A DNA stretch of 64,000 bases, from the NCBI GenBank assembly GCA_964016885.1, contig OZ024741.1, positions 166,160,001 through 166,224,000 of the forward strand, in the 5' to 3' direction. Each line of letters starts with the position of its first letter. Position 1 is the first letter of the stretch. Shown one piece after another: positions 23,320 to 60,125 of the stretch. Both the position numbers and the translations under genes were made by a program. Under the pieces are notes generated by a model. That model was not told the DNA's origin and searched no databases. It saw only the letters and a program-made list of their open reading frames with translations. The DNA is from Eledone cirrhosa (taxonomy: Eukaryota).

Positions 23320-24314
23320 ATAATAATAATGATTTCATTTATTAGCCACAAGGGCCGACATGTAGGGGACAATATAAAGACAGGAACAGTGGGGGTTTAC
23401 AATAAGGTCGAGTAAAAGTGCACAATGGCAAGACTAATTTAACAATGAAAATATAAAAATATAAAATAAACTATGCATAAATATAACAAAATAAATTCCT
23501 CGATAGGGGGTGGACGACCCTGGGGTGATTCGGGTACCCCACCAATCCTGAACCACCCTGCGCTTCTAGGGCACCCAGGGAGAGCACCCCTCTCCTCAAG
23601 TTAGCCAGCCTATAGGCGCATGGTCAGAGTAGGCCCATTCACACGAGCCATTCTCGCCACATTCACCCACCTTTTAGCAAATGTACTGGGGGGCAGCACT
23701 TCTCTCTCCACCCTCACCTTCCTTTCCAGGTGGAACTTGAAGAAGTTGATGAGGGATTGGTCGAAGAGAAAAGTGTCTGTCTTTAGTCCTTTCAACCTGG
23801 TCCACCATATAATCTCTTTCGCAACTGCCACCAGACAGAGAAACATTTCCTGCTCTTCCTGACCTAAGGAAGACAGTGGATCGATCTTCACTATAGACTC
23901 GGCCGATAGCCGGATTCGTTCTACACGCGACAGTAGCTGTTCGACATAACTCCACAAGTCAGTAATGCACGGACATTGGACAAGTGCGTGCAGAACGGTT
24001 TCGTCGTTCTGTGCGCATCTTGGGCAGGTCCGTCTGACAGCACTTCCGTGCCTGTAGAGTTTATCCCGAACCGGCAGTGCCCCCCGGTAGCACTGCCAAG
24101 CGAGGGATTTCTGGAAATTGTCCATCGTCCCCGGCTCAAAAGTCCTCCGGTACAGACTGGTCAGTTCGACTTCGTCGAGGCCCAAAGCTTCTCCGAGTGC
24201 GTCATCGCTCTTGCCCACCACTAATCCACTATAGAACTCGAGAGTGGAAGCTCCACTGATCGCATTGCCCGCTTGGTAGAGGGCAGTGAGTGCCTCGCAA
24301 CTTCCAGGTGCCAG
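23318..24314 (-). mobile_element. 5'-truncated Tx1 element (ORF2 C-terminus 23610-24221)
   Basis: MDNFQKSLAWQCYRGALPVRDKLYRHG...CPRC homologous to the array ORF2; (ATT)n tail on the minus strand. Confidence 0.92.
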
Positions 24315-24501
24315 ATTGTTTCTACTTTAGGCACAAGGCCAGCAATTACCCAGTGCATTACTGGTACTTTATTTTATCGACCCCGTAAGGATGAAAGGCA
24401 AAGTCAACCTCGGCAGGATTTGAACTCAGATCGTAAAGGGACGAAACTATGCTGGAAAGCATGGCGTCCGACACTCTACTGATACTGCCAATCCACCGCC
24501 C
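24315..24501 (-). mobile_element. tRNA-derived SINE (family 1), full length
   Basis: A-box-like TGGCAGTATCAGT, B box GAGTTCAAATCC, body TTTGCCTTTCATCCTTACGGGGTCGATAAAATAAAGTACCAG; several copies in the window. Confidence 0.88.
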
Positions 24502-24552
<51 letters not shown>

Positions 24553-27500
24553 TTTCATTTATTGGCCACAAGGGCCGACATATAGAGGACAATACAAAAG
24601 ACTGGGACAGTGGGGTTTTACAGAAAAATCGAGTAAACAATATGAATAACAATAACAAAATAACAAGAAAAATGCAAAAAAATTCCCCAATAGGGGGGAT
24701 GACCACCCAGGGTTCGCTCAGGTACCCCACCAATCCTGAACGACCCGACGCTGCGAGAGCACCCTGGAAGAGCACCCCTCTCCTCCTCAAATTTACCCAC
24801 CTACAGGCGCATGACCAGAGTAGGCCCACTCACACGGGCCATTCTCGACACATTCACCCACCTTTTAGCAAATGTACTGGGGGGAAGCACTTCTCTACCC
24901 ACCCTCACCTTCCTTTCCAGGTGAAACTTGAAGAAGTTGATGAGGGATTGGCCGAAGAGAAAGGTGTCTGTCTTCAGTCCTTTCAACCTCGTCCACCATA
25001 CAACCTCTTTCGCTACTGCCACAAGACAGAGGAAAATTGCCTGCCCTTCCTGGCCAAAAGAAGGCGGTGGGTCGATCTTCACTATGGACTCGGCTGATAG
25101 CCGGATCCGTTCTACACGCGACAACAGCTGTTCAACATAACTCCACAAGTCAGTAATGCACGGACACTGGACGAGTGCGTGCAGAACGGTTTCGTCGCTC
25201 TGCGCGCATCTCGAGCAGGTCCGTCTGACAGCACTTCCGTGCCTGTAGAGTTTTTCTCGAACCGGCAGTGCCCCCCGGTAGTACTGCCAAGCGAGGGATT
25301 TTTGGAAATTATCCATCGTCCCCGGCTCGAAAGTCCTCCGGAAGTTCCACTTCGTTGACTATCAGAGCCTCTCCAAGTGTGTCGTCGCACTTGCCCACCA
25401 CTAATCCTCTCTAGAACTCGAGAGTGAAAGTTCCACTGACCGCATTGCCCGCCTGGTAGAAGGCAGTGAGTGCCTGGCAACATTCCAGATGCCAGTCACC
25501 CAGTCTCGGTCTCTTCTTGACCCAGGACTGCAGTTCAGTCAAAGAGACGAGCTGCGGAAAGGCCCGTCTGACAAACGGCGACCACACCTGTTCACCGTTT
25601 AGGCAGAATATCTGTAAATGCCGCAGCCTCAGCGCGTGTCTGCGCATCATTAGCCGCGGCATGCCCACCTCTCCACGTAGAGGGTGCTGGCAGCAGATGG
25701 ACCGCCTCACCAACGGAACCTGACCCCTCCACAAGAATTTGAAGAGGAGCCGCTCCAAGGTGGCGAGGCGCGAACGGGGGCAAAGGACGACGGTCAGACG
25801 GTAGTAGAATACGGACACAATGTGCGCGTTAACCACCTCTGCCCGACCTTTCAGTAATAGCTATCTCGCAGCCCATTTCTGGGTGAGACTGGCTACCCTG
25901 TCCATCACCTCGTTCCAATTCTTATCCACCTGGAGGTCTGGCCCGAACCAAACCCCGAGCAACTTTACCGCTCCATCCGTCCAGTGCCTAACGACGCTGT
26001 TTGACGGCATTGACTTGCTTCTCCAGGTGCCGAGTTGCAAGCCCACCGACTTTTCCGGGTTAAGTTTTGCTCCCGTCAACCTTTCATATTCCTCCAATAA
26101 CTTCTCGACCACCTCGATTTCTGAGGTGTCCGACACCATCACAGTGATGTCGTCCGCATAAGCCGACACAGCCTTTTCGCGTCCCAGTTCGTGCGGGATG
26201 CCCTGCAACAGCTCCACCTTCCGCAGTAAAGGCTCGAGAGCCAATACGTACAGAAGGGAGGAGAGAGGACACTCTTGACGGACCGATCGGGAGACCTGAA
26301 ACGGTTCCGAGAGGTGGCCATTAATTTTGACCATCGAGCAGGTGCCGCTGTGCATTGCAGCGATCCAGCTTCTGAAGACGGGGCCGAAGCCAGCCGCCTT
26401 GAGGACAGCCTCCAGGTACCGATGGCCGACCCTATCGAATGGTTTCGATTGATCTAAATTGATCAGAGCCCCACCAAAGCCAGGTTTACACCCTACCCTC
26501 TCTATGATGTATCGCATCAGATGCAGGTTGTTTATAGACCTGGTTGAGATTGCGCAAGTTTGCGCCTCCCCAACCAAATCCCCGACGACAAGCGCCAATC
26601 TTTTCGCTAACACCCTGCCCAAAATCTTAAAATCTGTGTTGAGCAGAGTTATGGGCCTGAAATTGTCTAATGTGTCCATTTTGTTCTCGTCTTTCCTTAT
26701 CTGCGTCACTACGCCCCGGCTCACAGAACTGGGAATACTCCCGTTCTGCTGCCAGTTCCAGTAGAGCGCTTCGATGAGATTGGAGAACAAGTCTGGCATA
26801 TTTACGTAAAGCTCGTAGGGCAGACCATCCAAACCGGGTGACTTGCGCCTCATGCAGCCGACAAGAGCATCCCGAATCTCGGCTGAAGTAATCGGCTTTT
26901 CGCAGCGCCCAGCGTCGGCCGTCGAGAGTTGCGGCAAGCAATCGAGGTAGGAACTGAAGTCCGCCACCGTCTCTGACCCGCCACTTCCCCCGAACAACCG
27001 AGCAAAATGTGGGCGAAAGACCTCACACACCCGCTTGGAATCGCTAACCAGGTTCTAACCTACGCGTCTTATCTAGGTCGAACATACAGATCACAAACTT
27101 GTGATCTGAATAGGCGACCGTTTTAAAACGTGGACAGCCTACACTATTTCTGTCTATTTTCCTAATGAATATCCTGTTTATATACGATCTAGATGACCCT
27201 ATGCGGTTATTCCAGGTCCACACTGGCGCATTAGGGAAATCTAGTCGGAACTGGCTGATCAGTTTTTTAAGGCTTTTGCACCCCCCGCTCCTATCGGATA
27301 CTCCCACACAGTCCCAGCGTGCATCTAAGATGCCGTTCCAGTCCCCCGCTAACAGTAAAGTGCGAGACGTACCCAGAAAGGCTTCCAGGCGTCTAAAGAA
27401 GTCCGGCCGTCCTGACCCAGTAGGGGCGTAGACGGCCACCAGTCTAAAGGCATCACCTTCGTTATTGTTCACGTCCAGGATCACCAACTTCCCGTCCAGG

Positions 27501-29980
27501 TCCCGGAAGATCGACCTTACCTCGAGATCCAGGCCTTTCCTAAACAGCACTGCCACCCCGCCTCCCATTCCCGGCCGACTAACAGATGCAAAGATATGAT
27601 AGTCGCCAAAAATGGGGGCTAGTGCGCGCGTGTCGGAAATCCTGGTATCGCTGACGGCAATTACATCCATTTCTAGAGACCTGACGTCGTTGAGCAGGTG
27701 ACCATGCTTCCAGGACGATCCCAAGCATCGAAAATTTAAACTTCCTACTCTTAATACGGCCATGTTGGCAGGCTAAAAGAGAGAGAGGAAAGGTTTACTT
27801 ACCTTCCGAGTACTTGTGAAGGTCGGATGGTTCGACCTCCATAGTTGGTGGGGTTTCTTTTGGGAACCCCTTTAAAAGCCTTGAAGTGGGTTTTACGTCC
27901 CGAGGAAAGCCGTCTCGTATCTCTTTGTATAAATCAAGCGACATTCGCACGAGAAACAAATCTTCCAGCACGCGAAATGTGCTCGATTTAAAAATTTCCC
28001 CCTCTTTTTGTATATCTTCACTTCGTGTTACGAGGGCCATCAGTTCCTTGTTGGCCCTCCTGACGAACACGAAGTTTTGTATGTTTTGTTGGTGTGATTT
28101 TATTTGTTTGCGTGGCTGTAGTGGTGATGGTTTTGGTGTTGTTGTTTCGGTTGTGTCCGTCTTTGTTGTGAGTGCAGTGTCTGTGATTTCAGATGTTTGT
28201 GTGTGTATTTGTTCTTGCGTCTGTTTAGGTTGTTTGCGTTTGGGGATTCTAGTGATGGTGATGGTTGTGTTGATGTTGGTGTTGTTGGGGAGATGTTTGC
28301 GTGGGTGCTGTCTGCATTTTTTACTGTGGGTGTTTTTGTGCTTTGTTGAGTTTTTTTTCTTTTTGTGTTTCCTTTTTTGTATTTTGGGGGATTTTGGTTT
28401 TCCCTCATCTTCACTACTGGTAGATGAGGGGTCTGTGTCTGTAAATGTGTCTGTATCTGTGTGTGTGTTTATGTTTTTATTGATGTGTGTATTTTTGTGG
28501 GAGAGGGGGAATTTGACAACTTTCCTCGTTTCCCCCCTCTGTGGTCAATGTTGCGGTGGTCTTTCTATTGGTGTTGTTGTTGGTGGTTTTGCCGGTGCTG
28601 GTGTTGGTTGTGGTCCTCGCCCCGGCGTCGGCAGCAGTGGAGCCCTTCGACACCTTGCATCTTTCAGCAGTTGAGGGCAGAAGGCTCGCAAATGGGTTTT
28701 TTCCCCACAAACAAAACAATGCGGCCTTTTGCCCTCGGTCATAATATGAATGACCGTACCATTCTGAAGGCGGATGTGGTCCGGGATTGTCTTCACATTC
28801 TCCGGCCTGATCTGGAGAAGTATCTCCAGGTCAACCCCGGACCAGTCCTTTCTGGCAGTTCTTGTCACTTCTATCGGGACGGTATCCGTCCCCTCCACAA
28901 TCGCACATCCCAGAAGCCACCACATGTCAATACCTAGTGGGATTCTGGGAATGCGGAGACGGGCCGTTCTTTTTCCCATGTGGGAGGGGTACATTATAAC
29001 CTTGCTAGTTTTGCAAGGTGTCATAGCGTGTTTCATAGCGAGGGCTTCTGACTTAAACAGCACCGAAATGGTGCCATATTGTCTGCCCCTCGCTATGTAT
29101 TCGGTGTCTTCTCTGATGCCCCTCAGCGTGACTTCGACATCTGCTTGTGGAATTAAAGCTGCCCTTTTGGTTTGTGCTGAGATGCATCTGTAATGCACCG
29201 TTCTGCGCTCCACTGCCTCAATAGCTTCTACCGGGACAGTTAAGTTGGCCCAGGTTTGCTCTTGCTTGATGAGCTTCCAGGCCTGGGCCAACTTTTCATC
29301 TTTGTTTGAGAGGTCCATGTTGAAGCATGGCCTCTTTTTGCCATGCTTCAACTGCCGCAGCGAAAGTGTTCTTGTTGTCATTGGGGGTGTTGTTGTTCTT
29401 GTTTGTGCTGTTGTTATCACTGTCGCTGTTATCATTGTTGTTTTCGGTGCCGCCGTTGTTCTCTGTGTAGTTGGTATTGTTGCTGTTAGTGTTGTCGCTA
29501 TTTGTTTTCATGTTAGTGGTGTTGATATTGTTGTTGCATTTGTCATTATTTCTGTTATCTGTATTTCCGCTGTCGCTGTTACTGTCATTTATTTTAAAAA
29601 TTAGAGTTCTCAGTGTTGTTATCATTGCAATCTTTATTCACATTGTTTGTGGTGGTGTTTGTTGTATCAATTTCTGTTAATTTCGTCGTAACGTTCCTCT
29701 CAATTTTTACGTCGTTGTCGCACGACAGCAGACATATCGCAGGGGGGCGTGACGCAGCTATGTTTTTTTTGGGGGGGGGGGGGTTCTCGATAATTTTTTT
29801 AAATGTAAAAAAGTTCAAATATTTGGGCCAAAAGGCCCAAATATTATACTTTCCCCATTCACAGAGCAAAGTCCAAGGGCTTGTATGCTTTACACAACAA
29901 CAAAAAATTCAATAAATAAGTTTTGACAGGTAAATAAATAAACTTACGAGAGCGAGCAAAAAGACGTCCGTTCAGACCCA
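24502..29980 (-). mobile_element. Decayed near-full-length Tx1 element (divergent subfamily)
   Basis: ORF1 pieces at 27795-29625 (CFVCGEKTHLRAFC); ORF2 pieces at 24801-27763 (EN, YADD, zinc finger) with stops and an in-element deletion at ~27044 between EN and RT; (ATT)n at both ends. Confidence 0.93.
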
Positions 29981-30260: not shown

Positions 30261-30551
30261 GGGGGGAGAGAGAGAGATAGCTAGATAGATATATAGATAG
30301 ATGTATTTGTATGTACGTCTGTATGTGTGTATATGTATGTGTGATGATACTGTATGTGTGGGTAAATGTTAAAAGACTGCAAAACGGGCAATAACCTTGT
30401 TACTGATGTAGCAATAAAATATAAAGTGAATCGTATCAATATTAGGTTATCGATGATATATTTAGATGTGAAATTGTGCAGATTGTCACTGTAACCTGTT
30501 TATGTTGTACAACATATTATTGGGTAGGAACGATGTAAAACATATAGAACC

Positions 30552-32315
30552 AGAGCTAGATATGATGTATAGTAAAGCTAGATCTGGTGTATACTAATTA
30601 GAGCTAGATCTGGTGTATAGTAAAGCTAGATCTGGTGTATACTAATTAGAGCTAGATCTGGTGTATAGTAAAGCTAGATCTGGTGTATACTAATTAGAGC
30701 TCGCTCTGGTGTATAGTAAAGCTAGATCTGGTGTATACTGATTAGAGCTAGATCTGATGTATAGTAAAGCTAGATCTGGTGTATACTAATTAGAGCTAGA
30801 TCTGGTGTATAGTAAAGCAAGATCTGGTGTATACTAATTAGAGCTAGATCTGGGGTATAGTAAAGCTAGATCTGGCGTATACTGATTAGAGCTAGATCTG
30901 ATGTATAGTAAAGCTAGATCTGGTGTATACTAATTAGAGCTAGATCTGGTGTATAGTAAAGCTAGATCTGGTGTATACTAATTAGAGCTAGATCTGGTGT
31001 ATAGTAAAGCTAGATCTGGTGTATACTAATTAGAGCTAGATCTGATGTATAGGAAAGCTAGATCTGGTGTATACTAATTAGAGCTCGCTCTGGTGTATAG
31101 TAAAGCTAGATCTGCTGTATACTAATTAGAGCTCGATCTGGTGTATAGTAAAGCTAGATCTGGTGTATACTAATTAGAACTAGATCTGGTGTATAGTAAA
31201 GCTAGATCTGGTGTATACTAATTAGAGCTAGATCTGGTGTATAGTAAAGCTAGCTCTGGTGTATACTAATTAGAGCTAGATCTGGTGTATAGTAAAGCTA
31301 GATCTGGTGTATACTAATTAGAGCTAGATCTGATGTATAGTAAAGCTAGATCTGGTGTATACTAATTAGAGCTTGCTCTGGTGTATAGTAAAGCTATATC
31401 TGGTGTATACTAATTAGAGCTCGATCTGGTGTATAGTAAAGCTAGATCTGGTGTATACTAATTAGAACTAGATCTGGTGTATAGTAAAGCTAGATCTGGT
31501 GTATACTAATTAGAGCTAGATCTGGTGTATAGTAAAGCTAGATATGGTGTATACTAATTAGAACTAGATTTGGTGTATAGTAAAGCTAGATCTGGTGTAT
31601 ACTAATTAGAACTAGATCTGATGTATAGTAAATCTAGATCTGGTGTATAGTAAAGCTAGATCTGATGTATAGTAAAGCTAGATCTGGTGTATCTTAATTA
31701 GAACTAGATCTGGTGTATAGTAAAGCTAGATCTGGTGTATACTAATTAGAGCTAAATCTGATGTATAGTAAAGCTAGATCTGGGGTATACTAATTAGAAC
31801 TAGATCTGGTGTATAGTAAAGCTAGATCTGCTGTATACTAATTAGAGCTAAATCTGATGTATAATAAAGCTAGATCTGGTGTATACTAATTAGAACTAGA
31901 TCTGGTGTATAGTAAAGCTAGATATGGTGTGTAATAATTAGAGCTAAATCTGGTGTATAGTAATTAGAGCTAGATCTGGTGTATAATAATTAAAGCTACA
32001 TCTGGTGTTTAATAATTAAAGCTAGATCTGGTGTATAGTAATTAGAGCTAAATCGTGTGTATAATAATTAGAGCTGCATCTGGTATATAGTAATTAAAGC
32101 TAGATCTGGCGTATAGTAATTAGAGCTAGATCTGGTGTATAGTAAAGCTAGATATGGTGTGTAATAATTAGAGCTGCATCTGGTGTATAGTAATTAAAGG
32201 TAGATCTGGTGTATAGTAATTAAAGGTAGATCTGGTGTATAATAATTAAAGCTACATCTGGTGTGTAGTAATTACAGCTAGATCTGGTGTATACTAATTA
32301 GAGCTAGATCTGGTG
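30552..32315. repeat. Minisatellite, 48-bp dimer (22+26 nt) grading into 26-bp monomers
   Basis: gctagatctggtgtatagtaaa + gctagatctggtgtatactaattaga; phase recurs every 240 bp (5 x 48). Confidence 0.97.
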
Positions 32316-32332
32316 TTGGATTATTGGTCTAG

Positions 32333-32775
32333 AGAATTAATGATAGCCGCTCAATATTTGGTAGAGTGCCGGATTAAAGGATAGCCGTTCAATATTTGGT
32401 AGAGTGTCGGAATAAAGGATAGCCGTTCAATATTTGGTAGAGTGTCGGATTAAAGGATAGCCGTTCAATATTTGGTAGAGTGCCGGATTAAAGGATAGTC
32501 ATTTAATATTTGGTAGAGTGTCCAATTAAAAAATAGACATTCAATATTTGGTAGAGAGCCGGATTAAATGATAGCTGTTCAATATTTGGTAGAGTGCCGG
32601 ATTAAATGATAGCTGTTCAATATTTTGCAGAGTGCCGGATTAGATGATAACCGTTCAATATTTTGTAGCGTGCCGGATTAAATGATAGCTGTTCAACAGT
32701 TGGTAGAGTGCCTGATTAAACGATATCCGCACTTTATTTAGTAGAGTGCCGGATTAAACGATAGCCGTTCAATAT
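32333..32775. repeat. 38-bp minisatellite, ~12 copies
   Basis: Unit ggattaaaggatagccgttcaatatttggtagagtgcc. Confidence 0.95.
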
Positions 32776-32880
32776 TCTTCTTCTTCTTCTTCTTCTTCTT
32801 CTTCTTCTTCTTCTTCTTCTTCTTCTTCTTCTTCTTCTTCTTCTTCTTTATCATCATCATCATCATCATCATCACCTTCT
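32776..32880. repeat. (TTC)n/(ATC)n microsatellite
   Basis: Direct reading. Confidence 0.98.
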
Positions 32881-32914
32881 TCGCCCACTTATTCATGGGA
32901 GCTCAAGATATATT

Positions 32915-32996
32915 GTATGTAGTTCCGTCTCTTTGAATTCAAATCCCGTCGAACTCAACTTTGATCGTTTCAGAGTCGATAAATAAACAACCAGTG
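32915..32996 (+). mobile_element. Degenerate SINE family 1 body
   Basis: gaattcaaatcccgtcgaactcaactttg...gagtcgataaataaacaaccagt resembles the B box and body. Confidence 0.6.
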
Positions 32997-33163
32997 GAAT
33001 GTTTTCTAGTTCTTTGTATTACTAGAATATTTTTCAACACCCTGACGCGTGTATGAATATATGATAATAAACGCGCAATCACAGACACACTTTCAATAAC
33101 ACATACTCACAGACATACATGTTAGATGCTGTGAGTGTTAGGCGCTTTTTTCTGTAGTTTATC

Positions 33164-33278
33164 ATCACCCCTTCCTTCCTCAGTCATCTCTAGTGCGTGA
33201 CGGCATCACCCCTTCCTTCCTCAATCATCTCTAGCGTGTGACGTTATCGACCATTCCTTCGCCAATCATTGTGTGACG
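33164..33278. repeat. ~41-bp tandem repeat, ~3 degenerate copies
   Basis: atcaccccttccttcctcagtcatctctagtgcgtgacg repeated. Confidence 0.8.
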
Positions 33279-33314
33279 GAAGGATGGACGGAAGTTGCTC
33301 AAATTTATATATAG

Positions 33315-33382
33315 ATGAAGTCAAATGTCGCCGTCGTCTACCAGCTGTCGTGGGAGCGATTGGAACTTCCTCATGTACGCAG
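33315..33382 (+). other. Candidate host exon
   Basis: Bounded by AG|...CAG|GTATAG; open frame EVKCRRRLPAVVGAIGTSSCTQ. Confidence 0.25.
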
Positions 33383-33719
33383 GTATAGTTAACCAGAGCT
33401 GCTCTTGGTAGAACAGATATATAGTATTATATAGTATAAAGGAGCATTGAAACAAAGCCCTAAGAACACACAATACGAGAAATGAAATTTAACATCGAAA
33501 ATGGTATTTCAATGAGATCTCATTCAATGTAATACTTGTGGGAATTCTTATTTTCAGAAATATTTCACATAATAAACACGAAGAAAGAAAGAAATATTAA
33601 ATAATGAAATACGGAAAAGGGGGACGGGGGAAGAAATCCTACATCGCTTGTCTAGGCGTTATCTCTTATCTTCGTACTATAGAAAGAATGGCGAAATCCT
33701 TGCCGCGGAGAAAAACTAG

Positions 33720-34330
33720 CGAGTGCTGGATTAAACAATATTTAGTAGAGTGCCGAATTGAACAATATTTGGTAGAGTGCCGGACTAAATGGTAGTCGCA
33801 CACTATTTGGTAGAATGCCAGAATAAACGATATTTGGTAGAATGCCGGATTAAACAATATTTCGTCGAATGCCGAATTAAACGATATATGGTAGAGTGCC
33901 GGATTAAAAAATATATTGTAGAATGCCGGATTAAATGATATTTGGAATAGTGTCGAATTAAACGATATTTGGAAGTGTGCCGCATTTAACGGTATTTGGT
34001 AGAGTGCCGGATTAAATGATATTTGGAAGAGTGTCGCATTAAACGATATTCGGAAGAGTGCCGGATTAAACGATATTTGGTAGAATGACGGATTAAACGA
34101 TATATGGTAGAGTGCCGGATTAAATAATATCCATTCAATATCTGATTGAGTGCCGGATTAAACTATATTTGGTAGAGTGCTGGTTTAAACGATATCTGGC
34201 AGAATGGCGGATTAAACGATATTTAATAGAATGCCGGATTAAACAATATTTGGTAGAGTGCCCGATTAAAAAATAGCCATTCATTATCTGGTAGAGTGCC
34301 GGATTAAACGGTAGTTGGTAGAGAGCCGGG
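33720..34330. repeat. 27-bp minisatellite, ~22 copies
   Basis: Unit gagtgccggattaaacgatatttggta, i.e. the 38-mer lacking 11 nt. Confidence 0.95.
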
Positions 34331-35446: not shown

Positions 35447-35483
<37 letters not shown>

Positions 35484-35513
35484 CGATTCTCTAGAAAGGC
35501 CGGAAGATAGGTA

Positions 35514-35558
35514 AATATTGCTGATGAGATGTAACAACATCGAAACTAGTCCAATATT
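35514..35558 (+). ncRNA. Minimal type I hammerhead ribozyme
   Basis: aatattg-CTGATGA-gatgt(aaca)acatc-GAAA-cta-GTC-caatatt: full core, 7-bp stem I, 5-bp stem II, palindromic ACTAGT stem III, GUC site. Confidence 0.9.
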
Positions 35559-35805
35559 CCTTGTCTGGCTTTCTGGAGAATAGAGGAAAGGTGTTTCCTC
35601 GAAAACCAGTATGACTCTAAAAACCGGTTTGTCTGTGTGTTTACATACAGAATAGCTGGACACTCACAGTAAAGTGTCCAGTGAAAAACTCGGTACATCT
35701 ACATATGTACACATGTGTGTATTCATATGCATACTAGTATTTCAGTATACATATGTGGATGTACATTTTTAACTTAATTATATATATATACTGTATATAT
35801 ATATA

Positions 35806-38760: not shown

Positions 38761-39354
38761 GAAAGAATGATGATGATGAAGAAGAAAGAATGATGATCAT
38801 GATGATGATGATGATGATGATCAAGAAGAAGAAGAAGAAGAAGAAGAAGAAGAAGAAATATGAATGACTTATTTAGTCTAAATATGTTGATATAGACTTT
38901 CCAGCTATCCAGGTTACTTAACTAAAATGACGAATATAATTGAATTAAGCTGTTTTACGTTCTTTTATTAATCCCCCCTCTCCCCTTCTCTCTCATACCC
39001 TTTCCTTTTCGTTCACATATCTGTACAACTCAGTACACACACACACAAACACACACACACACGCATATATATATACACATGCATACATGAATGAGATATG
39101 TAAAATAATTTGACTTTGTTATCATTGTTAAATAAAATTAATTTTATTCTGAGTTAACATTCTATTGGTTTTTTTCCCTGGATTACATAAAATCTGTGGA
39201 TAAAATTTCTGTCTTGACTTTTTTTGAATTGAGATTGAATTATTTTCCCATATCTTACGTTAAATATTTTCCATCTTGACGTAATAGTCACTTATATGTA
39301 TGAATTACTTTTGGCTTCTTGCTCACATTAATTTCTCTATTTTCATTTATATAT

Positions 39355-39897
39355 AAATGGAATAGAATGACACGAAATTTCATTTCTCACTCTTAGTACG
39401 GCACTTACTTAAATGTAAGTATGTATGTATGTATACGTACATACATATATGTATACAGACGTACAGTAGTATGTATATATATATACATACATGCACACAT
39501 ATATATATGCACGTATCGGTTTACTGAACATTTATTATAATGCTCGGTTTGTTTGTTTGTAAACAAACAAACAGCCCGAATTACGCCGTACAGTGTTTAG
39601 GCAACCACGTCACCTTTTTGTTCAACACTGACACAGGAACGATGTACTAGTTTCAAGCTTATTAGCTATCGTCAGCATCGTATACCTTCCTGCCAAATGG
39701 TTGAACGTCTGAAAGTATATACTTTCCTTATGCATATTAACGGCTGAGCAGCCTAATTTGTATATCGAGTGAGTTCAGTCGGCCGGGCGCACCGAAAACG
39801 ATAAATGGAATAGAATGAAACGAAATTTCATTTCTCACTCTTAGTACGGCACTTACTTAAATGTATGTATGTATACGTACATACATATATGTATATC
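39355..39897 (-). mobile_element. Retrozyme-like non-coding element: 448-bp unit plus ~95-bp terminal direct repeat, one hammerhead
   Basis: aaatggaatagaatga... at 39355 and 39803; hammerhead at 39639-39681; second copy at 59666-60125 in opposite orientation. Confidence 0.75.
39639..39681 (-). ncRNA. Minimal hammerhead ribozyme
   Basis: Minus strand acgatg-CTGACGA-tagct(aata)agctt-GAAA-cta-GTA-catcgt. Confidence 0.85.
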
Positions 39898-39984
39898 ATA
39901 AATGTTTGATTCTTATAGAATTTTTAGTAATAATCAAGAACTGATTATACAGAGCGGTTGCCGGCCAAGCAGAAATTGAAAATT

Positions 39985-40287
39985 AGAATTGGCGCTCTGA
40001 AATAGCGATATATATATGAATGTATATATAGAAATTCTATAAGAATCAAACATTCATGATTTTCAGCAAACAGGTGGAGTACTTGGCTTTGATAAGTACC
40101 AATCAGTACGAAACATAGCTCTGTCAGCTTTATCTCCCCTGTTTGCTGAAAATTTAAAGTAAGTGAGACTGTCACTACTCTAAAACAATAGCATAAGGTC
40201 TTCGAATGCTTTTAATTAAGCATACAGTGTATTGCAAAATACACTATATATACATTCATATATATATCGGTATTTCAGAGCGCCAAT

Positions 40288-40290
<3 letters not shown>
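39985..40290. repeat. Element with ~47-bp inverted repeats and a degenerate hammerhead (40086-40128, +)
   Basis: agaattggcgctctgaaatagcgat... versus its reverse complement at 40243-40290; gct-TTGATAA-gtac(caatca)gtac-GAAAC...GTC-agc has two core mismatches. Confidence 0.65.
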
Positions 40291-40337
<47 letters not shown>

Positions 40338-41037: not shown

Positions 41038-41098
41038 TATTTTATCTGACGAAAGCGTACTTAAATATTAGTACCCTTGAAATACGTATAATAAAATA
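41038..41098 (+). ncRNA. Minimal hammerhead ribozyme
   Basis: tattttat-CTGACGA-aagcgtac...gtaccctt-GAAA-tacgta-ta-ataaaata. Confidence 0.8.
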
Positions 41099-41783: not shown

Positions 41784-41810
41784 CTGCCAATATATATATA
41801 TATATATATA

Positions 41811-41967
41811 TACGATATTAAATAAATGGAAACTATATTTATAAAACCATATTTATTTCATTATATATATTTCATGGATATCATATTAACAATATGCTAT
41901 GCCTTCCTCAGACAAAATACAATATAAACAGTTTTATAGATAAATAGATTTGACATACCGTACAACA

Positions 41968-42019
<52 letters not shown>

Positions 42020-42173
42020 TGTTGTACGGTATGTCAAATCTATTTATCTATAAAACTGTTTATATTGTATTTTGTCTGAGGAAGGCATAGCATATTGTTA
42101 ATATGATATCCATGAAATATATATAATGAAATAAATATGGTTTTATAAATATAGTTTCCATTTATTTAATATC

Positions 42174-42176
<3 letters not shown>
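41811..42176. repeat. Perfect 160-bp inverted repeat around (TA)n, hammerhead-like motif in each arm
   Basis: Arms 41811-41970 and 42017-42176; CTGAGGA...GAAA-tatata-ta at 42068-42133 (+) and 41854-41919 (-). Confidence 0.88.
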
Positions 42177-42248
<72 letters not shown>

Positions 42249-42251
<3 letters not shown>

Positions 42252-45200
42252 GAAAAAGTGAAGAATAACATGGTCAACGGTACAAAAAAAAAGGAATTTA
42301 TTTACAATCTAACAATTGTTTCTTTGATTAAGTTGTCTAAAAATTGCTGAACACTAGAAGCAGTGCCACTCAATTTTAAATACGATCAAATCATCAGAGG
42401 ATATAACGGCAAATTTACAAATTCAAATTACAGCATCAATAATAATATTAATAATAAAGATAGAGAGAGAAAAAAAAGAAAGAAAGAGAGATAGATAAAG
42501 GAAAGAAAGAAAAAGGATAAGGAAAAAGAAAAAGAAAAAGAAAAAGAAAAAGAAAAAGAAAAAGAAAAAGAAATAAAAAAGGAAAAGGAGAAATGAAAAA
42601 GAGAAAGATATATAGAGAAAAAAAGATATTGAGAAAGGACGATAGAAAGAGGAGAGAAAAGGATAAAGGAGAAATAACGTAAGGAGAAATAACGTAAGAG
42701 AGAAAGAAAAATAGAGGGAAAATAATGATATCAACAATAAATGAATAAATGTTAATACATGAATAAATGTAAATAAATAAATAAATAAATAAGTAAATTA
42801 CATCTAGGGTGATATAAAATGATATAAAATATAAATATGAAAGTATGAAAATATGAAAATAATTAAGTAAAAATGTGCGGAGAAATTTAAACATATTAAG
42901 ATTATTGAAAGTGGTTATTGAGAGTAGTTAAAATGTAGAGAGATACGAAGGTAAAAATATGATAATTGTTTCTACTTTTGGCAAAATATATTTATGTGTG
43001 TATTGGTTATTTTAATAAATTAATTATATAATTAATTAATTAATTAATTAATTGTAAGTTATATTAGAAGTGAAAATGATATGATAAGATAAAATAAGAT
43101 AAAATGCCAGAGATGAAATAAATTTAGGGAAAGAAATATAGAGATAGAAAGTGAAATATAGAGATACATAAAATATTAATGTAAATATAAGAGGTTTTGA
43201 TGTTAATTCTTTGATAGATGATGACAATTATAACAATAATGATGATAATGGGATATTATAATAGATCTAAGTGGTACAAATTGGGTTATGGAATAGATAA
43301 GATGAATTAAGCTGGTCTAAAGTTCTCAAATTTGGTCGCCGTTTTAAGCCTACAGAAAATAGTTCTTTCAATTTTATTATTAAGTAGCATTTTGTTGTTA
43401 TTTAAAATTTGGAAAAGTTCCATATTACAAAGACCACAGTGGGACATGTCAACTCGATAGGCTGTTGCTGTTGATAGCTTCATCCAGCTGATTCTATATT
43501 CCATATTTGCATCTCTGAGTTGCCAAATTTGATTGGCGAGAGTCGTTGTATTTATGAGCTTCCTGTTAGTCATAGAGTGTCTATGGACATTCCACCGTTT
43601 CTTAAACTCGCCAGCTGTGGAGCCTATGCAGTGCCATGCTAAGCTGCCTGAATTTATAGTACATAGGTATACTATATTTAATTCTAGGCATCTATTTTGT
43701 AATGGGCATTTGTCATGTGCCGGTTCTTTCCTATGTGCCGGTTCTTCGATATGGTTTTGCAGGTTGTTATGCACAGGCTGAGCATTGTGTTTATTGATGT
43801 ATTGTGGTGATGTGTTCTGACGTGTGTTTGGTTGTGATGATGTTATATGCTTATGTTTTGTATTTGGTGTTATGGTACTTATTTGTGGGCTACTTGTATT
43901 ATAAATTATTTTATAGTTAATTTTATGTATGTGCGATTCTATGTTGTTGGCAGTGGAGTATGATAGTTTGATAGTTTTTCTATTAAAGATTTTATGATAT
44001 TTATGAATTTTAGGGAAGTGTTTGTCAACTAATTTGAAGAAAGTGAGGTAGTTTTGTTTTTATAGAGGAGTTAAACACTGGATTGAACCATAAGTACTTT
44101 CTATCTCTGCATCTTCTATAGTTAGTAGTGGTCTTTATATTAGTATTCTGTTCAATTAATTGACGTCCTTGTTGCCAATTTCTATGTTTAGTCCTAGATT
44201 TGTTGCTTCTATAGGTGTGGATAGTGTTATTTCTATTAAGTGTATTGTTATTTTTTGTATCTGGTATGTATTTGAGTCTCTCTTTATGGCTTGCCTTAAG
44301 TAAAGCTATGTTGTAGTAGTTAGCGTGTTCGTTAAAAATCTCTAGATTAGAAGATAGGCGCGAGATTCTAAGGGATATACTATGGAGTTAATTATGGATC
44401 GAGGGTGATTAGAGTTATAAATAATGTAAGCTAAATTTTAATTATTTTTATGGAAGAGTTCTATTAGTCCTGTGTTTAGGTTGAGCGATACATCTAAGAA
44501 GATGGCTTTTTTAGAGTTGAGTTCAAAAGTGATGTTAAGGCCTAAATTATTAAAGAATTTTCTAATCTTTTTCTGTAATCTTTTTAAGTTTTGATTATTT
44601 AGGTTTTTAGCTAAAAGTAATGTATCGTCTCTATAAATTCCTCCTTGCAGGTTATCAAATTCCTTATGTAAGATATGTGCTATATAAATTCCGACAATGT
44701 CCGTAACTTGGGCTGAATCATTTGATCCCATAGTTATATCGAAGTTATTCTGCTTATTTTTTCTTTCCCAGTAACTATTGTCGAATCTAATGATTGTTCT
44801 TCTAGCAGCTAGTATTATTTTAATTTCCTCTGGTGATAGGTCAGAGTTTTTTTGTACAAAGGATAGTGCCCTATTTAGGGTTACTGGGGAAATAGAAGAG
44901 TAGTAGTCATTAATGTCAAATTGTATGAAGTCGGAAGATTCTCTATTGTCTAATTTATTAAACCAATCTATTGCTTCATTAGTGTTACCCCAGAGCTTGA
45001 TTATTAGTTTTTCTTTAATTTTTGGTATTATTCTATCTAGTATAAACTTGCTAATTCTGCCTATATCTGATTTTGAAGCACATATTAATCTAATAGTAGG
45101 GTTAGTTTCGAAGTTATATTTATGATCCTTCAGATTAAAAGTGGGTTTACAAGGGGTTAGTGGTTCGGTTCTATCAGATATTTTGAGTTTTTCTACTATG

Positions 45201-45790
45201 TTAAGACCTTCCTTGTTAATGCTATTGAGTGTAGACTCTGTAGTTTTCTTGTATTTTTATGTAATTCCCGGCGTATAAAGTTGTTGTATGTATTAAGGCT
45301 CATGGTGTATACATTAGATGTTTTGTCTGCCTTTACTATAATACCATTGGTGTTACGTAGTTTTTTTAGTAGTGCATTGGTGTTATTTTGTAGTTTGTTA
45401 TGATGTGTTCGTTTTTTGAATTTAGTTTCCTTTATCATGTTCATGAGGTCAAGTTCAAAGGCATCAAGTTGTGGGTGCACGGTGGATTATTGCAGGATTT
45501 GAACCCATATTTTTCATTGATAGACCCATTATTTCTATAATTATTATTAATGATAGAAACAATTGTTAGACTGTAAATAAATTCCCTTTTTTGTACTGTT
45601 TACCATGTTATTCTTCACTTTTTCAATATTATTACTCCAAGATAAACTCACATAGGAATTCAAGTGAAATCATAAACTCGCCATTTACGTAAACCTATTG
45701 TTGAGTCAAACAACGCCCTACGCTAAAACTATCCATAATAATAAGTATTCACAACCTCTAACTGGATTACCTATAACGATATGTTGTTAT
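42249..45790 (-). mobile_element. Decayed Penelope-like element (RT plus C-terminal GIY-YIG) with inverted pseudo-LTR
   Basis: KADKT, MGS...IYRDDTLL RT motifs; CPLQNRCL...IVY...IGST...FKKRW...CGLC endonuclease; 42249-42322 is inverted at 45556-45628; TA flanks. Confidence 0.88.
42307..42402 (-). ncRNA. Hammerhead with extended stem II in the Penelope pLTR
   Basis: CTGATGA-tttgat...(~55 nt with inner helices)...atcaaa-GAAA-caattg-tta-gat; stem I weak. Confidence 0.7.
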
Positions 45791-45791
45791 T

Positions 45792-45840
<49 letters not shown>

Positions 45841-45845
<5 letters not shown>

Positions 45846-46553
45846 ATATAGAAATTATTGTGAGCAAGAAGCCAACAGTATTTCATAATATATAAGTGAC
45901 TATAACGTCAAAATGGAAAATAATTAACGTAAGATATGGGAAAATAATTCAAACTCAATTAAAAAAAAATCAAGACAGATTTTATCCACAGATTTTGTGA
46001 AATCCAGGGAAAAACCAATAGAGTCATTAACTCAGAATAAAATAAAGCTTAAATACTCATCCTTCAATTTGGAAAAAACTACAAATGCTCTATATAGTCT
46101 TAAAAAGACTATTTCACGAAATTTTCAGTGGGGATGGTCACGGTTGGAATGGTTCGTCAGTAGAGCTCAAACACGATAACCCTAAACTACTACCAAAATA
46201 TGCCAAAAAGGAAATTTAAAAGCAGGCTAGTTCACCTCGTGCGGAATTATAAAAATAAACACACATGGCGAGACATGGCTGGTGACGTCAGAATGAGACG
46301 AATGTCTATTTACAAGAAACAGCAGTCAAAAACATTCCGAAAAAAACTCTACAAAATATAAAGAGTTCAGCAAAATAGCAATATTATCGCGGTTTAAAAA
46401 AAAAAAAGACCGGGATTAGTCACAAATAATTTTAAGCACTCTAGGAAAAATTCCGAGTATAAATATAAATGAAAATATAAAAATTATTGTGAGCAAGAAG
46501 CCAACAGTATTTCATAATATATAAGTGACTATAACGTCAAAATGGAAAATAAA
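45841..46553. mobile_element. 629-bp unit with ~84-bp terminal direct repeat, TA-flanked
   Basis: 45841-45923 matches 46470-46553; a related inverted fragment lies at ~39135-39297. Confidence 0.7.
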
Positions 46554-59642: not shown

Positions 59643-59665
59643 TGGCCTGGTCCAGGACTTTCCTT

Positions 59666-60125
59666 ATGCATATTTCATTTTTTCCATTTATCGTTTTCGG
59701 CGCGCCCGGCCGATTAACTCACTCGATATGCAAATTAGGCTGCTCAGCCGTTAATATGCATAAGGAAAGTATATACTTTCAAACGTTCAATCATCTGGCA
59801 GGAAGGTATACGGTGCTGACGATAGCTAATAAGCTTGAAACTAGTACATTGTTCCTTTGTCAGTGTTGAACAAAAGGGCAACGATGGTTGCTAAACACTG
59901 TACGGCTTACTTCGGGATGTTTGTTTACAAACACACCGAGCATTATAATAAATTTTCGGTAAATGCTTACGTACATATATATATATATGTGTGCAAGTAT
60001 GTATATATACATACTACTGTACGTCTGTATACATATATGTATGTACGTATACATACTTATATTTAAGTAACAGCCTTACTAAGAGTGAGAAATTAAATTT
60101 CGTTGTTTCAGTTTTTTCCATTTAT
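59666..60125 (+). mobile_element. Second copy of the 448-bp hammerhead element (hammerhead 59810-59852)
   Basis: Reverse complement of 39355-39820; cggtg-CTGACGA-tagctaataagctt-GAAA-cta-GTA-cattg. Confidence 0.78.

Follow-up and report, generated by a model that had tools for sequence, protein, structure and literature searches.

The DNA analysed here, a 64,000-nt stretch of the Eledone cirrhosa genome referred to below as the window, contains two insertions of a non-coding repeat with a period of 448 nt. Copy 1, at 39353-39895, comprises 1.23 units; the overlap, in which 39353-39455 (103 nt) recurs at 39801-39895 (95 nt), differs between its two occurrences by one substitution and one 8-nt indel. 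The preliminary description had recognized the 448-nt unit plus partial repeat with one hammerhead, a terminal redundancy of about 95 bp and the non-coding nature of the unit, all of which we recovered, with the coordinates shifted by 2. The 3' end of copy 1 is the long end, unit position 448, and lies on a short TA run, and its 5' end corresponds to unit position 346.

Table 1. Positions of the two repeat copies and their parts in the window.
Feature	Position	Strand	Remarks
Copy 1, whole insertion	39353..39895	-	single arm, 1.23 units
One full 448-nt unit (positions q1-q448)	39353..39800	-	37% G+C; no stop-free frame >63 codons
Partial upstream unit (terminal redundancy, 95 nt)	39801..39895	-	
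Type I hammerhead	39639..39681	-	predicted cleavage between 39645 and 39644 (after GUA)
'Tail', ~60 nt	39353..39411	-	separates two preferred 3' ends (q360-400, q441-448)
TA/CA-rich self-complementary segment	39410..39516	-	length variable among copies; predicted long hairpin
Octamer-like motif (putative)	39756..39763	-	ATGCAAAT in 142/150 copies; altered in copy 1
Copy 2	59675..60125	+	1.04 units; long 3' end on (TA)n; hammerhead at 59810-59852
Inverted stub of unit (q62-79), 18 nt	59657..59674	-	at 5' junction of copy 2

Copy 2 lies on the opposite strand and is 86.7% identical to copy 1 over 480 columns. A diverged second copy with helix I changed to ACGGUG/CAUUGU had been reported before and is indeed present, with an extent of 59675-60125, given then as 59666-60125 (Table 1). 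We read the short inverted stub beside it as the remnant of a second arm. Target-site duplications, which in retrozymes exceed 4 bp when present, were not visible at either window copy, where (TA)n flanks would hide them. In neither copy do complete hammerheads occur in two or more units in a row; having one hammerhead, copy 1 would not release a monomer by itself, and it is probably an inert dead end.

Copy 1 abuts, tail to tail, the TA end of another repeat, which carries a hammerhead-like motif near 46160 whose helices II and III are long, has a partial terminal repeat and is found at 39138-39352 (+) and 45828-46551 (-); the same arrangement recurs at one further locus, L024. Elsewhere in the window, 1-23000 (+) is taken up by a 6.1-kb LINE-type element in four copies arranged head to tail, whose starts are 98-99% alike. 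This element encodes AP endonuclease, RT and zf-RVT in a 1,204-codon frame, with another frame, up to 702 codons long, upstream of it, and a diverged (75-79%) inverted copy follows at ~23600-28500 (-). Adjacent minisatellites of 48, 26, 38 and 27 nt with a common motif lie at 30400-34300.

A promoter role of the octamer-like motif in Table 1 is putative. In a search for an snRNA-type promoter, the unit matched the upstream regions of five host U2 genes no better than shuffled sequences did, and no perfect octamer was found in these five regions. The U2 snRNA genes form tandem arrays at ~307.35-307.45 Mb of contig C3 (2.2-kb spacing) and at ~36.17-36.18 Mb of contig C13, and the five inspected upstream regions have blocks in common near -250 and -60.

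Hammerhead motif and its conservation

The hammerhead of copy 1 is composed of helix I (ACGAUG/CAUCGU), the core CUGACGA, helix II (AGCU/AGCU) with a U.U mismatch at its base, GAAA, the 6-nt palindromic helix III ACUAGU and the GUA site; a distal extension of helix I is predicted out to ~39634-39692. A type I scan of the window returned six matches, compared with none in each of 20 shuffles. In the 3.0-Gb genome the core pattern matched 12,628 times and the reversed pattern not once, and a motif just downstream of the core gave 19,082 matches with none for its reversed control. Based on the shuffle scan and the reversed-pattern control, the motif is not a product of chance. No Rfam family matched the window at gathering score; among 57 matches at E values up to 10 none belonged to a hammerhead family, and those to miRNA families, which fell on the TA/CA segment and were all below gathering score, were dismissed.

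In an alignment of 157 copies, most of which had been selected on the core, 145 have an intact core, and each helix I pair holds in 150-155. The sole strongly polymorphic pair is A-U in 70, U.G in 61 and G.U in 17 of the 157 copies, while the base of helix II is mismatched in 155. Covariation was examined in 13 hand-picked sequences of three families, behind which stand few independent events: 92.9% of cells were paired (helix I 100%), compared with 73% in shuffles and at most 47% in slid alignments, and five of six pairs showed double changes. Two unrelated repeat families, a 310-nt tandem repeat and the one represented by the copy at window 35521, differ in their helices but keep the spacing, loop 2 and flanking motif. 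The unit outside the TA segment is not unusually folded (z -1.7 without this segment, z -6.2 with it).

The U.U pair at the base of helix II also occurs in the axolotl hammerhead HHR_Amex2, which cleaves poorly on its own and well as a dimer (PMC7229834). Of nine predicted frog retrozyme dimers, one cleaved in vitro and eight did not (Li et al. 2026). This outcome, the mismatched helix II base in nearly all copies and the missing Rfam match weigh against the retrozyme model.

Several other elements in the window and in the sampled loci carry related motifs. Hammerhead-like cores were noted at 41046 (+), 41911/42076, 46684 (-), 48469 (-), 48720 (+) and 58886/59080; two of these are inverted pairs, one of them lying within a perfect palindrome of 2 x 204 nt at 41790-42197. 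The sequence at 35481-35790 (+) represents a third retrozyme-like family, which is two-armed at locus L078; its hammerhead at 35521 has loop 2 and a palindromic helix III as in the 448-nt unit and different helices. A decayed two-armed repeat with a broken hammerhead core lies at 39896-40300, has relatives in 316-nt tandem arrays at L078 and has motifs in common with the 310-nt family. The 310-nt hammerhead unit itself, again with U.U at the base of helix II, forms tandem, two-armed arrays at four loci (L066, L095, L143, L166).

Insertion ends and two-armed structure of the family

The family is dispersed over many contigs, and the best 40 of 2,394 scored candidates are 98-100% identical to copy 1. 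We sampled 77 loci that cover 99 of the first 100 core matches listed and 37 further loci that match the downstream motif without the exact core; the latter belong mostly to a very young subfamily with units of ~456-526 nt and one loop 2 change. Most loci thus came in through the core pattern or through resemblance to copy 1, and they lie largely within the first 42 Mb of a single contig; the window locus (L001) as well as L131 and L196, which overlap or nearly duplicate L130 and L195, were left out of the variant, arm-pairing and young-subfamily counts. Units are mostly 420-526 nt long and head-to-tail arrays reach ~6 units. Multimers, on whose existence the preliminary description had made its candidate retrozyme depend, do occur: 11 of 86 arms carry two or more hammerheads, in line, at the level of the family, with the consecutive complete-hammerhead units that Li et al. 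(2026) call 'active'. Altogether 51 of the 86 arms are longer than one unit and nine exceed two, one of these (L080) being an alignment merge. Contigs of four sequencing runs contain the family or parts of it, which says nothing on expression, and matches of low coverage in two other organisms were disregarded.

The 3' ends of the 86 arms fall into two clusters ~60 nt apart, with 35 at q441-448, 39 at q360-400 and 12 elsewhere. A TA-rich flank adjoins 58 of the 74 clustered 3' ends, compared with 12 of the 86 5' flanks. The 5' ends occur throughout the unit; some surplus within the TA segment is due at least in part to ambiguous alignment. The check for circularly permuted endpoints that had been suggested earlier therefore came out divided, in that 5' ends scatter and 3' ends are fixed at two sites; randomly permuted 3' ends were rejected, since 74 of 86 fall at these sites.

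Unit pieces on both strands were found at 71 of 143 loci, of which 45 have them directly head to head; the other 26, whose pieces are not directly adjacent, were set aside. Among the 45 head-to-head insertions, 29 combine an arm with the long end and an arm with the short end, one has the long end on both arms, one has the short end on both, and 14 have an end elsewhere (p 2e-7), such that one arm per 3' site is seen in 29 of the 31 classifiable two-armed insertions. This pairing is the 'tail' signature of Penelope-like elements (PMC8557442, PMC3846280). The Penelope tail has been traced to two internal start sites of reverse transcription, with both target strands cut and extended in AT-rich DNA (PMC11167929). 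In the same study the anole Penelope protein used two adjacent internal start sites in vitro, uncut RNA was the main substrate, and hammerhead mutants left insertion unaffected. Together with the end positions, this work suggests that the tail boundaries of the 448-nt unit correspond to two reverse-transcription start sites.

Nature of the RNA template and relation to coding Penelope-like elements

Had the copied RNA been a cut linear monomer, many 5' ends would be expected at the cleavage site, q157. Patterns that require foreign letters before q157 matched 77 times and those for the control position q163 matched 83 times, and among 30 inspected matches for each, 14 and 22, respectively, were flagged as truncated; 3 of the 14 and 2 of the 22 end elsewhere, leaving 11 and 20 exactly at the tested position. 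Moreover, 93 of 98 downstream motifs run through the cleavage site, and gaps at q150-162 are rare among the 157 copies. The lack of an end pile-up implies that the copied RNA was continuous across the site. A continuous template may be a circle, an uncut multimer or scarlessly joined monomers, and the end data do not separate these. The circular or terminally redundant RNA template proposed in the preliminary description thus fits as far as continuity goes, and a circle in particular is not distinguished from its alternatives.

Arm lengths beyond the hammerhead fit an exponential distribution with a mean of 270 nt (KS p 0.32, n=74). Within the young subfamily, a single haplotype runs through every unit and both arms of an insertion (seven of seven segments at L143). 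Across the wider sample, 246 rare variants are confined to one unit, 11 are common to all units and 18 are partial; this predominance of private variants argues against late local duplication and is expected if the units arrived together. Unit length varies inside some young arrays (484, 502, 484 and 494 nt at L143; 472 and 526 nt at L159) and is constant in others (466 nt three times at L145; 508 nt twice at L169). One circle would explain the variation within an array only with slippage in the TA segment.

We give a little less than even chances to a model in which each insertion records two Penelope-type reverse transcriptases that start at separate fixed positions of a single circular ribozyme RNA and roll round it from both strands of a break. 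A model with the same element and a Penelope-type enzyme, in which a tandem master array is read through into an uncut linear transcript that serves as template and circles, if made, are by-products, is about equally credible. It is compatible with every end statistic, arrays of 4-6 units are available as possible masters, the differing unit lengths within some arrays are in line with it, and unprocessed RNA was the main substrate in vitro with no effect of hammerhead mutants (PMC11167929). However, progeny of a linear template cannot outgrow the parent, and most arms are short (nine of 86 exceed two units), so that long young arrays need a source; there is also no common 5' boundary that would mark a start site, and several units of the same length stand within one array at other loci (L145, L169). 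A circle is therefore put slightly ahead of an uncut multimer as the probable template, given that long young arrays need a source that outgrows its parent and by analogy with coral, mussel and axolotl retrozymes, for which circles have been shown.

We also considered that cut linear monomers serve as template and that multimers are built by template jumping between monomers. A 19-nt insert exactly at the cleavage site of L130/L131 and the 11 of 30 inspected matches ending at q157 speak for this. Still, ends at q157 are no commoner than at the control position, the run-through motifs and rare gaps described above argue against it, and a search for RNA-editing scars in 50 segments of 21 young loci counted 15 A>G against 20 T>C changes and hence no surplus of A>G, which makes template jumping an unlikely source of the arrays.

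With regard to the enzyme, the question arises whether the unit is simply the pseudo-LTR (pLTR) of a coding Penelope-like element with heavily 5'-truncated copies. Such elements are abundant here, one GIY-YIG query yielding 54,709 first-look candidates, the unit has all their insertion marks (PMC8557442), and a relationship to pLTRs has been described for frog retrozymes (Li et al. 2026). The query was the C-terminus of a broken Penelope-like element at 43307-45600 (-) in the window, which retains RT together with a GIY-YIG domain at its C-terminus. In 107 loci, a small number compared with >12,000 copies, no Penelope-like frame consistently adjoined the unit, and it is the next unit, not an ORF, that lies upstream of the hammerhead. 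Likewise, none of 65 inspected GIY-YIG ends had the unit as a consistent terminal repeat; unit copies downstream of such ends lie at varying distance and on either strand, and ends with a hammerhead of their own carry different motifs with a long helix II. The fetched loci contained nothing distantly homologous to the unit. A plain pLTR of a coding element, which the preliminary description had named as the case against a retrozyme, was accordingly not encountered among the loci examined, and we regard it as improbable. A search for an autonomous partner with the one GIY-YIG query and the Penelope fragments of the fetched loci gave no common terminal repeat, and three young arrays near one Penelope family proved to be separate insertions.

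An ORF with RT and GIY-YIG, as an autonomous Penelope-like element would have, was not found with the unit in the 107 loci or at the 65 GIY-YIG ends. The tail, inverted 5' arm, partial tandems and microsatellite target of Penelope-like elements are all present. The hammerhead departs from the minimal type defined for Penelope pLTRs, with a long helix II and a helix I of 4-5 bp (PMC4209133), in having a 6-bp helix I and a short helix II. So far as tested, the element works like a non-autonomous Penelope-like element and not like an autonomous one.

Growth of a satellite from solo inserts by local DNA duplication or unequal crossing over, a scenario discussed in Li et al. (2026), would account for array L039, in which rare variants are common to two of 4-5 units, and is very improbable in view of the dispersal over many contigs, the fixed 3' ends, the two-armed structure and the excess of unshared over shared rare variants (246 vs 11).

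Proposed mechanism and comparison with known systems

We consider it likely that the repeat is a non-LTR retrozyme-type insertion, written into (TA)n by a Penelope-like enzyme that starts at two internal sites of an RNA left uncut by the hammerhead, most likely a circle. According to this model, tandem copies would be transcribed, and hammerheads, probably paired as dimers in view of the 6-nt palindromic helix III, would cut out monomers; by analogy with coral, mussel and axolotl retrozymes, the monomers would be ligated into circles. A Penelope-type endonuclease would then cut both strands of a (TA)n target, and reverse transcription would start at q~385 on one strand and at q448 on the other; the end positions are observed, and the enzyme is the one they suggest. 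Each cDNA would run a variable distance, often more than one unit, and pass the cleavage site without a scar, after which two cDNAs would join head to head or one would join the flank, giving the structures that are observed. Copy 1 would have arisen in this way, as a single arm of 1.23 units. The likely role of Penelope is argued from the insertion footprints.

The retrozyme class is already known and copy 1 is probably inert; the value of the locus lies in the family. Its two presumed start sites, two-armed layout and lack of ends at the cleavage site constitute insertion-level evidence for the class of enzyme, and the family is a ready substrate for testing a circular against a linear template. 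If the rolling model were true, this family of >12,000 copies, very young subfamilies included, would provide direct evidence, at the genome level, that an animal viroid-like RNA undergoes rolling-circle retrotransposition. Mobilization by Penelope from circles has been proposed in retrozyme papers without insertion-level evidence (PMC7229834; Li et al. 2026); among the published accounts surveyed, we found none that provides such evidence.

By sequence and organization, the repeat classifies as a metazoan non-LTR retrozyme, as the preliminary description had suggested: it is non-coding, occurs in many copies, forms tandems and has a covarying type I hammerhead in each short unit and a G+C content <50%, and unit follows unit with no LTR-plus-internal-region layout. 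With the retrozymes described in PMC7229834 and Li et al. (2026, 10.64898/2026.07.22.740005) it shares the low-GC tandem unit with one type I hammerhead, the thousands of copies, the occurrence of monomers and multimers and the coexistence with Penelope-like elements. Retrozyme units measure 150-450 nt in the former and 51-972 nt in the latter. Unlike those described, the present family has its own sequence, with units of 420-510 nt and a TA/CA hairpin segment; two fixed 3' ends and a two-armed structure are, to our knowledge, not described for retrozymes in PMC7229834 or Li et al. (2026).

Likeness to Penelope-like elements extends to partial tandems, an inverted 5' arm, an optional 3' tail, 5' truncation, (TA)n targeting and a hammerhead in the repeat (PMC11167929, PMC8557442, PMC3846280, PMC4209133). 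In contrast to these elements, the family has no ORF, its tail is ~60 nt rather than 30-40 nt long, and its hammerhead is of the canonical type and not the minimal one with a long helix II. At their 3' end, non-autonomous Chlamys elements as a rule look like an autonomous family, whereas no partner was found here, and most Chlamys are without hammerheads, unlike the unit (PMC8557442). What the family has in common with those non-autonomous elements, of which MRC1 is an example (PMC8557442), is the multicopy head-to-tail insertion made by a Penelope-type partner, which is likely also the case for the 448-nt unit.
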